Below are positions 16,439 through 17,626 of a DNA stretch of 64,000 nucleotides, one piece after another. Every line of letters starts with the position of its first letter. Positions within the stretch are counted from its first letter, which is position 1. The notes beneath the pieces were generated by a model that saw nothing but the letters and a program-made list of their open reading frames with translations, was not told the DNA's origin and searched no databases. The stretch covers positions 38,907 to 102,906 of the forward strand of contig CALVNW010000003.1 of the NCBI GenBank assembly GCA_944350015.1. The letters run 5' to 3'. The stretch is from an uncultured Clostridia bacterium. GTDB lineage: Bacteria; Bacillota; Clostridia; Christensenellales; UBA1242. The translations under genes and the position numbers were made by a program.

Positions 16439-16450
16439 GGTTTAAAGCAA

Positions 16451-16480
16451 AAAACTCTATGGATTGCCATAGAGTTTTTT
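16451..16480 (+). terminator. rho-independent terminator of the giant gene
   Basis: ctctatgg / ccatagag stem followed by T6. Confidence 0.75.
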
Positions 16481-16713
16481 AATGCAAAAATAGATATTTA
16501 AAGGTCTTTTATTGACAAGTTTGAAAAGGTTTAACCTCTTGTTTAAACAAAGAATTTTTAGCAAAATTATAAGCAAAACTATAGGTCGAACCCTGTATTT
16601 AGACAAATAATAAGTAAAGATTTTATGTTTTTTGTTTAAAAATTTATTTAGATGTTAAAAATTAAGGGGAATATAGAGGAAGTTTTGACAAATCTCTTCT
16701 TTATATTTTTGGC

Positions 16714-16720
16714 TTCGACA
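16714..16720 (-). promoter_or_regulatory. perfect Spo0A box (TGTCGAA on the minus strand) upstream of spo0A
   Basis: TTCGACA at 16714-16720, about 165 nt upstream of the spo0A start. Spo0A autoregulation through 0A boxes is established in Bacillus and Clostridium. A single heptamer could be chance. Confidence 0.3.
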
Positions 16721-16882
16721 GATAGCGGGGAATTTAAAGATTTTTTATCATTTTTATATCCGCTCACTTGCAAGATGGGAAAAATCAACAAAATTCAACA
16801 ATTTTCATCAATTTTCAACACTGCGAACGCTTTTATTTGTGGATAAAAAGTGCTATCTTTAGAATTAGTAAAAGGAGACAAA

Positions 16883-17626
16883 ATGGAAAACAAAGAAAAT
16901 ATAAGATTGTACATTGCAGATGAGGTAAGAGATAATGAGTTGTATAACTATTTCAAAAACAAAGAGGGCTACCAAGTGGTAGGCGCTGGCACTGCTGGCT
17001 TGCAGGTGGTAAAGGACGTCAAGGTGATGCGCCCAGATTTTCTTATTAGCGAAGTAATGCTTTCTGAGATAGATGGCTTTAAGGTTTTTGAAACGCTAAA
17101 AGAAGAGATGGGAAGTGAGTGTCCTAAGGTGATATTTGTAAGTTCGCTAACGCATTCGGGCTTTGTATCAAAGGCTATGAAAGAGGGTGCAAGCTATTTT
17201 ATGTTTAAACCTATTATGCCTGAAAATTTAGAGGAGAGATTGCAAGACATACTTAGTCCAAATCTTGTTGTCGACCCAAGCAAAGTTTTAGACGAGAGAA
17301 TAGCAAGCATATTCATCAGTATCGGCATCCCTGCCCATATCAAAGGCTATCAATTTTTAAGAGAGGCGGTTAAGCTTGCCGTTCAGGAGCCTGATATGAT
17401 AAGCCAAATCACAAAGAAACTCTATCCAACGATAGCCGAAAAGTTTGAGACAAGTTCCTCTAAAGTCGAGCGCGGTATGCGTCACGCGATTGAAGTGGCT
17501 TGGAATAGAGGCAAGATTGAAAACATTAACAACATATTTGGTTTCAAAGTTTACAGTAACAACGAGAAACCTACAAATAGCGAACTTATTGCTCTTATTG
17601 CCGACAAAATGATTATGGACGGCTAG
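16883..17626 (+). CDS. spo0A: sporulation master regulator Spo0A (atypical receiver domain)
   Basis: C-terminal Spo0A-specific domain (IGIPAHIKGYQFLREA...SKVERGMRHAIEVAWNRG...KPTNSELIALIADK). AAAGGAGA lies upstream of ATG 16883. The receiver domain has E at the expected phospho-Asp position (see findings). Confidence 0.9.
   Translation: MENKENIRLYIADEVRDNELYNYFKNKEGYQVVGAGTAGLQVVKDVKVMRPDFLISEVMLSEIDGFKVFETLKEEMGSECPKVIFVSSLTHSGFVSKAMKEGASYFMFKPIMPENLEERLQDILSPNLVVDPSKVLDERIASIFISIGIPAHIKGYQFLREAVKLAVQEPDMISQITKKLYPTIAEKFETSSSKVERGMRHAIEVAWNRGKIENINNIFGFKVYSNNEKPTNSELIALIADKMIMDG

Follow-up and report, generated by a model that had tools for sequence, protein, structure and literature searches.

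Results

Spo0A of an uncultured Clostridia bacterium

The gene described here is the spo0A orthologue of an uncultured Clostridia bacterium, in which the phosphorylated Asp of the receiver domain is replaced by Glu. It is located on a stretch of 64,000 nucleotides of contig CALVNW010000003.1 (assembly GCA_944350015.1), which as a whole is referred to as the window. The source genome (G000; 1,250,657 bases, 28 contigs, 98.5% complete) belongs to the GTDB genus UBA11517 (Candidatus Caccovivens) in the family UBA1242 of the order Christensenellales, and all genomes compared in this study are metagenome-assembled genomes (MAGs). The features of the locus are compiled in Table 1.

Table 1. Features of spo0A and of its control region (positions within the window)
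Feature	Position	Strand	Remarks
Terminator-like hairpin and T-run (AAAAAACTCTATGG ATTG CCATAGAGTTTTTT)	16446..16482	+	Read from the sequence; ends the gene of a 4516-aa surface protein upstream
One-mismatch 0A box TTTGACA	16684..16690	+	Consensus match; 30 nt upstream of the perfect box
Perfect 0A box TTCGACA (reverse of TGTCGAA)	16714..16720	+	Consensus match; 169 nt upstream of the start codon
Extended -10-like element TGCTATCTT	16851..16859	+	Consensus match only; 32 nt before the start codon
spo0A coding sequence	16883..17626	+	247 aa plus stop; sole full-length Spo0A and sole receiver-domain gene found in the genome
Receiver domain, residues 7-124	16901..17254	+	PF00072 match; (beta-alpha)5 fold intact; aspartate-less (pseudo-)receiver
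Asp13-Glu14, remnant of the Mg2+-binding acidic pair	16919..16924	+	First position invariant in the genus, second free
Helix alpha-1 region, usual docking surface for kinase, Spo0F or Spo0B	16925..16960	+	Two residues shorter than in canonical Spo0A
Glu57, codon GAA	17051..17053	+	Column of the B. subtilis Spo0A phospho-acceptor Asp56
Ser87, conserved Ser/Thr closing beta-4	17141..17143	+	Alignments and model; Ser in 63, Thr in 7 of 70 genus sequences
Lys109-Pro110, active-site Lys and next Pro after beta-5	17207..17212	+	Both invariant in the genus
Spo0A_C DNA-binding and transactivation domain, residues 140-242	17300..17608	+	Nearly invariant in the genus

The reading frame of spo0A extends from 16850 to 17626, with the ATG at 16883 being preceded by the ribosome-binding site AAGGAG (16872-16877). 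The GTG start of the longer frame, at 16850, overlaps the extended -10 motif. Against the NCBIfam equivalogue model TIGR02875 (spore_0_A), for which the curated cut-off is 200 bits, the product scored 215.8 bits over model positions 2-256 of 262. Pfam assigned a receiver (Response_reg, PF00072; 56.8 bits, above cut-off) and a complete Spo0A_C domain (PF08769; 135.3 bits, model positions 1-103 of 104), the latter matching the structure of PDB entry 1lq1 with 128 bits and 51% identity in a phmmer search. An AlphaFold model built with 60 relatives (mean predicted local distance difference test score 87.9, and 82-98 in blocks spanning residues 11-120) exhibited the usual (beta-alpha)5 fold in the receiver, with the helical effector domain of Spo0A behind it, and Foldseek matched it to the Spo0A-DNA complex 1lq1 (template modelling score 0.93) and to the phosphorylated Spo0A receiver 1qmp (0.87). 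The protein is the genuine Spo0A of a gut bacterium with a reduced genome and is encoded by a single copy, and its DNA-binding domain is canonical, as the initial annotation of the window had proposed.

The acceptor position

That annotation had also placed a Glu on the phospho-acceptor Asp56 of B. subtilis Spo0A and a Ser on the preceding Leu, and both exchanges were recovered. The phmmer alignment with the B. subtilis receiver (PDB 9phz) is ungapped in this region (rpdflisEvmlseidgf versus dpdvlvlDiimphldgl) and sets Glu57 on Asp56 and Ser56 on Leu55. Glu57 occupied the acceptor column also in MAFFT alignments with 58 and with 123 relatives. In the AlphaFold model strand beta-3 closes with Glu57 and beta-4 with Ser87, and Lys109 is located behind beta-5; these are the canonical active-site positions. 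The acidic pair ADD indeed reads ADE and so stays acidic in this protein, while the downstream Ser/Thr (VIFVSS) and Lys (FKP) are kept. Asp64 of the EIDG motif was considered as the true acceptor and rejected: in every alignment it falls on the Asp that is conserved in the loop motif hLDG, in the model it sits at the start of helix alpha-3, and no alignment puts an Asp of this protein on the acceptor position.

A single base separates GAA from an Asp codon and the first alignment had been made by eye, which might invite the view that the Glu is an artefact, be it a sequencing or assembly error, a misalignment with Asp64 as acceptor, or a paralogue taken for Spo0A. This is practically inconceivable. 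Glu occurs in 68 of 70 independently assembled species and is encoded there by two different codons, the phmmer, MAFFT and structural placements are concordant, and the protein exceeds the equivalogue cut-off and is the sole full-length copy of its genome; sequencing error and paralogy are thereby ruled out.

Conservation and evolution within the genus

The genus provided 70 distinct Spo0A sequences, of which 68 have Glu and two have Asp as acceptor residue, with GAA being used 51 times, GAG 17 times, and GAT and GAC once each. The protein tree requires at least 14 switches between GAA and GAG but only two switches to Asp codons; two of the three possible third-base changes of a Glu codon would yield Asp. 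The low number of Asp switches as compared to the synonymous ones suggests selection for Glu (roughly p = 0.02, with transitions weighted threefold over transversions). As the two Asp species are nested deep within Glu clades, they are regarded as reversals. A second clade of seven species contains only Glu, and so does a more distant genome (G054). Overall, at least five changes between Asp and Glu are needed on the tree. The base of the 85-sequence clade is a three-way split, for which two gains, or one gain and a reversal, are equally parsimonious.

The remaining pocket residues differ strongly in their conservation. Asp13 and Lys109 are present in all 70 sequences. Position 14, the second member of the acidic pair, varies more than any other active-site position that was examined (entropy 2.98 bits; N, K, S, T, A, G, V, D and E occur, with one of the first seven in most species) and is apparently not selected as a metal ligand in this genus. 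This second acidic residue is largely gone already in the 85-sequence clade, where both sister groups contain Asn.

Mean column entropy in the genus is 0.17 bits for the DNA-binding domain and 1.29 bits for the receiver. The ratio of nonsynonymous to synonymous substitution rates (dN/dS, omega) is 0.003-0.02 for the DNA-binding domain in close pairs and 0.03-0.16 for the receiver in the closest sister pairs, the only pairs for which it is informative, as synonymous sites are saturated in most pairs of the genus. These values point clearly to purifying selection on the receiver. Conserved receiver positions form islands (Ala12-Asp13, Glu57, Leu60, Asp64-Gly65-Phe66, the beta4-alpha4 stretch SNLSHSGF, Ser104-Tyr105-Phe106-Met107 and Lys109-Pro110), whereas helices alpha-1 to alpha-3 are variable. 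The switch aromatics Tyr105-Phe106 and the alpha4-beta5 face are thus among the parts that have been kept, and it is through the alpha4-beta5-alpha5 face that receivers usually dimerise and pass on their output. Altogether, the pattern indicates a Spo0A protein that is still functional.

A look beyond the genus, at approximately 112 Spo0A-like cluster representatives (50% identity) with an alignable receiver, revealed that roughly one quarter lack the Asp, although this set is biased towards relatives of the query and may include paralogues. The non-Asp acceptors in this set are Glu (about 12), Gly (7), Asn (4) and Ser (3), and nine of ten tested Asp-less proteins exceeded the TIGR02875 cut-off. 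Asp-less Spo0A therefore seems to extend beyond UBA11517.

Phosphotransfer partners and their docking surface

A six-frame profile search of the whole source assembly detected one receiver domain (Response_reg), which is that of Spo0A itself, so that no Spo0F is present among the detected proteins. The four HATPase_c matches, of which each open reading frame (ORF) was inspected, are accounted for by two GyrB/ParE-type topoisomerase subunits, MutL and SpoIIAB and thus do not hide a kinase. HisKA and HATPase_c_5 gave nothing above noise in this genome (best E-values 0.03-0.04, below cut-off), and neither Spo0E-type phosphatases (SpoOE-like) nor Hanks Ser/Thr kinases (Pkinase, PF00069) yielded any match, the latter in a six-frame first pass that may miss divergent genes. 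Hence, no phosphodonor, either in the form of an orphan histidine kinase or of Spo0F plus Spo0B, was found in the source genome, with no Spo0B-specific model being run.

The same picture emerged from the genus. Spo0A is the only receiver in about 100 of 121 sampled genomes, and HisKA could be detected in only nine of the 121. At least seven of these nine encode an extra response regulator within about 1 kb on the same contig, which points to a conventional pair of kinase and regulator. Another 21 relatives (0.7-1.6 Mb) mostly have Spo0A as their single receiver as well, and the HATPase_c matches are again the four housekeeping and SpoIIAB proteins. The genomes of the genus combine the Glu substitution with a scarcity of kinases, the two features for which the initial annotation had proposed to check related genomes.

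The surface with which Spo0A contacts its partners was inspected as well. Seven specificity residues of Spo0A have been described as "remarkably conserved" in both known architectures (Davidson et al., PMC6136694), with NELLEYD as the signature of B. subtilis and NEFIDYD as that of C. acetobutylicum (PMC6136694). This signature, NE[LF][LI][ED][YF]D, which is spread over helix alpha-1 and the beta5-alpha5 loop, is lost in the protein studied here, which has V-D-gap-E-N-Y-M instead. The phmmer alignment with the B. subtilis receiver has a two-residue gap in alpha-1 that is present in 64 of the 70 genus sequences. Asn12 is kept in none of the 70, the position of Leu15 is deleted in 64, and S, M or K stands in place of Asp111. 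In contrast, the signature is mostly preserved where genomes of the same order are larger: of 26 such members, 21 have N, 20 have L, F or I, and 20 have Y or F. The kinase-docking helix alpha-1 has thus degenerated in the genus.

Kinase loss does not track the exchange of Asp for Glu. Relatives with Asp (G035, G009 and the clades with a DN-D or DE-D pocket) are also devoid of detectable kinases, and among the relatives examined kinase loss reaches beyond the Glu clades. As close kinase-less relatives still have Asp, Glu was probably a later step in a group that already did without sensor kinases, and the substitution seems not to have caused the loss of phospho-signalling but to be a single step within this broader process. 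Reduced genomes of neighbouring lineages (G071-G074, G061, G063, G077 and G078; 0.8-1.4 Mb) encode a Spo0A with the acceptor Asp, which in G071-G074 and G078 is accompanied by an acidic second pocket residue, and neither a histidine kinase nor a second receiver was found in these eight genomes. The alpha-1 specificity residues are degenerate in the DE-D and DN-D clades, too. Small-molecule donors are one possibility for how a Spo0A with a canonical pocket could be served in a genome without kinases.

Such donors also bear on the idea that a covalent modification of Glu57 or of a nearby residue, for example glutamyl phosphorylation by a small-molecule donor or methylation, acts as the switch. 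Phosphorylation and methylation of Glu are possible in principle (PMC4395418), and the kinase-less relatives with a perfect Asp pocket hint at small-molecule donors. However, no bacterial example of such signalling is known (PMC4395418), the second acidic residue, a metal-binding partner, is not conserved, no Hanks kinase was found, and the lack of a second receiver protein argues against a chemotaxis machinery of the CheB/CheY type (CheR was not searched for). A covalent switch of this kind is therefore highly improbable.

Sporulation genes

The source genome encodes SigH-, SigF-, SigE- and SigK-like sigma factors, a SigG above the equivalogue cut-off, SpoIIAB, SpoIIE, SpoIIGA directly upstream of sigE, and SpoIVA (374 bits). 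SpoVAC and SpoVAEB adjoin the spoIIA-sigF cluster, and a YpeB-like protein was assigned by eye. YabP, YabQ and an SpmA/SpmB-like pair, to which the initial annotation had already referred, are located in the window. Since this gene set has been retained in a genome of 1.25 Mb, it argues for sporulation, or a near equivalent, still being in use.

The genes next to spo0A differ between species. Five genomes of the genus (G008, G016, G018, G159 and G161) exhibited no detectable full-length spo0A; spoIVA and spoIIE were each found in four of the five. In G008 (95% complete, nine contigs) the synteny with G006 beside spoIIE stops at the place where G006 has its spo0A (L140 versus L141). These genomes were considered as natural knockouts, a use for which they are not suited, as the MAGs are 77-95% complete and a real loss and a binning gap would both fit.

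A repurposing or a merely weak activity of Spo0A is conceivable, with a receiver locked in the unphosphorylated, low-activity state and either a low-affinity housekeeping role for the protein or an initiation that has moved elsewhere, for example to SigH. The C. difficile D56A mutant keeps some sporulation, which has been attributed to a low activity of unphosphorylated Spo0A (bioRxiv 10.1101/2022.02.07.479450), the five genomes mentioned above retain spoIVA and spoIIE in most cases, and small acid-soluble spore proteins (SASPs) were not found in the source genome. On the other hand, a near-invariant DNA-binding domain and a conserved 0A box would not be expected of such a protein, Glu is maintained over Asp and any neutral residue, and in the incomplete genomes spo0A may just lie outside the bins. 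A repurposed Spo0A is thus quite improbable, though clearly less so than a covalent switch.

The control region of spo0A

The terminator-like hairpin sets the 5' limit of the control region of spo0A. The perfect 0A box recurs in the same orientation in 39 of the 70 genus species, where it precedes the start codon by 88-169 nt; the genome-wide density is 0.077 per kb. In 18 species the start of a second xxSGACA box follows exactly 20 nt downstream of the first, a distance of two helical turns. Of the 70 species, 51 have the extended -10 motif TGnTAWHWT no further than 90 nt from the start codon (background: 0.076 per 90 nt). A SigH-type promoter upstream of spo0A was looked for by eye and was unconvincing, the conserved motif being an extended -10 element of the sigma-A-like type. 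The predicted upstream 0A boxes would fit with an autoregulation of spo0A as known from model organisms, and together with the near-invariant DNA-binding domain they lend support to a putative recognition of 0A boxes by this Spo0A.

An ORF of 64 aa (16652-16846, plus strand) spans the conserved 0A box and the promoter region and is most likely not a gene. Upstream of spoIIAA (G000:C12, about 2430-2470) two half-conserved 0A-like boxes, TTAGACA and AAAGACA, lie 21 nt apart, a spacing similar to the 20 nt of the tandem boxes that precede spo0A in other species of the genus. They stand just ahead of a terminator-like hairpin, which is followed by the extended -10-like element TGTGTTATAT and by spoIIAA itself.

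Discussion

Interpretation of the Glu-bearing Spo0A

The best explanation of these findings as a whole, to which we assign a probability of roughly 0.6, would be a Spo0A with a pseudo-receiver that works outside phosphotransfer, is biased by its Glu towards the "on" state and is controlled via its amount. As neither the acceptor Asp nor phosphodonors nor the docking surface could be found, Spo0A would be placed outside His-Asp phosphotransfer; this independence is well supported by the genomic evidence, and sporulation is probably started without the usual phosphorylation signal. In mechanistic terms, control of Spo0A by His-Asp phosphotransfer would be absent, and the carboxylate of Glu57 would, together with Ser87 and Lys109, bias the receiver to a dimerisation-competent "on" conformation. 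The activity of Spo0A would then be set by its amount. This amount would in turn depend on transcription from the extended -10 promoter of the sigma-A type and on a positive feedback of Spo0A on its own gene via the upstream 0A boxes, with some further input feeding into it.

The phosphomimetic step is the weakest link of this mechanism. An exchange of Asp for Glu alone is often insufficient for activation, with Spo0A being named as one such case (PMC4395418). As this exchange was reportedly not sufficient in B. subtilis Spo0A, phosphomimicry by Glu57 cannot be assumed, and reversals to Asp occur. The initial annotation is accordingly supported in part: its statements on the individual residues stand, and the missing partners, together with the retained sporulation genes, strongly support a Spo0A that either is independent of phosphorylation or is subject to regulation of another kind, while the classic phosphomimetic that it saw in Glu57 is not to be taken for granted.

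Several further observations weigh against a level-controlled, Glu-biased Spo0A. The D-to-E exchange on its own did not make B. subtilis Spo0A constitutive (PMC4395418). Two nested species carry Asp again, and kinase-less sister lineages keep a fully canonical D-E...D pocket or combine Asp with Asn at the second position; because of these reversals and lineages, Glu is not strictly required once kinases are gone. In any single MAG a kinase might be unassembled, although the pattern recurs in more than 100 genomes. No perfect 0A box could be detected upstream of spoIIA, spoIIE, spoIIG or sigH in the source genome, where by eye only one-mismatch boxes were seen, and promoter and 0A boxes were assigned by matches to a consensus only. 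None of the organisms is in culture, and sporulation has never been seen in them. SASPs of the alpha/beta type (PF00269) were not found in the source genome, in a six-frame pass that short genes may escape, and without them the sporulation programme may be incomplete or unusual. The apparent absence of both alpha/beta-type SASPs and a Hanks kinase is unusual for a presumed endospore former.

The main alternative, which we consider rather unlikely, is a pseudo-receiver that is still regulated, with the signal being a small ligand or a protein partner that binds at the alpha4-beta5-alpha5 face or in the old active site and switches dimerisation or the release of the DNA-binding domain. Glu57 would then merely keep the pocket folded, and candidate partners would include the Spo0A_C-only paralogues of the genus or some anti-activator. 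Pseudo-receivers that are regulated by means other than phosphorylation are a known class (PMC12632262, PMC4395418). The purifying selection on the receiver and its conserved surface islands would be needless in a merely permissive domain, any acidic residue seems to suffice, given that two species have gone back to Asp, and one to three stand-alone Spo0A_C proteins are encoded in nearly every genome of the genus. However, no ligand site and no partner gene linked to spo0A emerged, the neighbouring genes varying by species, and the paralogue of the source genome adjoins a DNA methyltransferase-like and unrelated ORFs instead of a sporulation locus.

These stand-alone proteins have 130-180 aa and are 30-40% identical to the effector domain of Spo0A. 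The copy of the source genome (G000:C10:14320-14781, outside the window) matched the C-terminal part of TIGR02875 with 52.5 bits and has DRSMRHA in place of ERGMRHA; the methyltransferase-like ORF beside it is, by eye, of the cytosine-C5 type. Spo0A_C-only proteins might act as competitors at 0A boxes, or they might be part of mobile elements. In addition, four metagenomic proteins (P0002, P0004, P0007 and P0009; 390-455 aa) contain three to four tandem Spo0A_C-like stretches and apparently no receiver, an architecture of which we know no description. Two long sigma-70-like proteins are encoded outside the window at G000:C3:13781-15706 (642 aa) and C16:22699-23787 (363 aa). Both consist of region 2/4-like parts followed by repeated helix-turn-helix-like modules, and both gave superfamily-level matches only, with no named sigma family being matched.

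Implications

Phosphorylation of Spo0A is treated as the universal entry to endospore formation, and a survey of sporulation initiation recognises phosphorelay or direct-kinase architectures only, with orphan kinases in 47 of 48 spore-formers (PMC6136694). A whole genus (more than 100 species-level genomes sampled) with sporulation machinery but with neither acceptor Asp nor kinase would represent a third architecture. Literature searches for a natural Asp-less Spo0A, D56E or P60S returned no relevant description. What is new is that a Spo0A orthologue is itself an aspartate-less receiver across a whole clade, in genomes in which no kinases were found.

A broader proposal, which we put forward tentatively and rate at somewhat less than an even chance, is that such a third architecture, without phosphorelay or kinase, characterises a radiation of reduced-genome gut Clostridia that comprises UBA1242 and its neighbours. 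The acceptor Glu would have arisen more than once after kinase loss and Spo0A would have become hard-wired, with the decision to sporulate being taken by Spo0A dosage and autoregulation only; Asp-less equivalogues would make up roughly one quarter of the nearby Spo0A clusters. If true, the series from kinases with Asp, via Asp without kinases, to Glu without kinases, including occasional reversals, would depict a two-component switch decaying to a one-component regulator. The genus would allow one to ask for the minimal input that is able to drive a sporulation decision, and it would offer a natural set of sequences for the question of what makes a receiver constitutive or ligand-independent. 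In addition, MAG-based predictions of spore formation and transmission in gut bacteria should not demand sporulation kinases or a canonical Spo0A active site.

Comparison with known systems

The protein shares its two-domain architecture with canonical Spo0A from B. subtilis, G. stearothermophilus and C. difficile (TIGR02875; PDB 1qmp, 9phz, 1lq1 and 1fc3). The Ser/Thr, the Lys-Pro and the aromatic switch residues are kept, a 0A box precedes its own gene, and the genome contains SigH, SigF, SigE, SigG and SigK together with spoII, spoIV and spoV genes. Unlike canonical Spo0A, it has Glu as acceptor residue, a free second acidic ligand, Leu-Ser instead of Met-Pro after the acceptor, and an alpha-1 shortened by two residues, in which the specificity residues that Firmicutes otherwise conserve are missing. 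Kinase, Spo0F and Spo0E, which belong to the canonical systems, were not found in the source genome, and Spo0B was likewise unseen in searches without a Spo0B-specific model. In C. difficile Spo0A, each of the exchanges D10A, D11A, D56A and K108A lowers sporulation (bioRxiv 10.1101/2022.02.07.479450).

In aspartate-less receivers in general, Glu is the commonest replacement (26%), the first acidic residue (triad-1) and the Lys are mostly kept, and the second (triad-2) is mostly lost (PMC4395418). The Spo0A of the genus matches this pattern with its invariant Asp13 and Lys109 (70/70 each), free position 14 and Glu in 68 of 70 sequences; its receiver is an aspartate-less receiver, or pseudo-receiver. 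A known example is ChxR of Chlamydia trachomatis, a constitutively active pseudo-receiver protein that also bears Glu (PMC4395418, PMC12632262, PMC3960148). Both have a receiver fold with Glu for Asp, both are orphan regulators in a reduced genome and both are presumed to be independent of phosphorylation. They differ in the output domain, which is Spo0A_C here and not of the OmpR/PhoB type. Moreover, the protein studied here is orthologous to a regulator for which phosphorylation is considered universal. ChxR remained active when its Glu was exchanged for Asp or Ala, which leaves the role of the Glu uncertain there, too (PMC4395418).

Engineered D-to-E regulators such as NtrC D54E (cited in PMC4395418) carry the same substitution at the same structural position, and the same mechanism has been proposed for them, namely a longer carboxylate that reaches the Ser/Thr and the Lys which otherwise hold the phosphoryl group. 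These are laboratory mutants of proteins that have kinases, and the effect is incomplete and varies from protein to protein, whereas the exchange described here is natural, ancient and accompanied by many other changes in the receiver. Constitutive forms of B. subtilis Spo0A that are truncated or deleted at the N-terminus, Spo0A-C and sad67, constitute another route to Spo0A activity without the phosphorelay, and the stand-alone Spo0A_C proteins of the genus resemble them. In contrast to these forms, the Spo0A of UBA11517 keeps a complete receiver under selection, and its independence from kinases would not result from the loss of an inhibitory domain.

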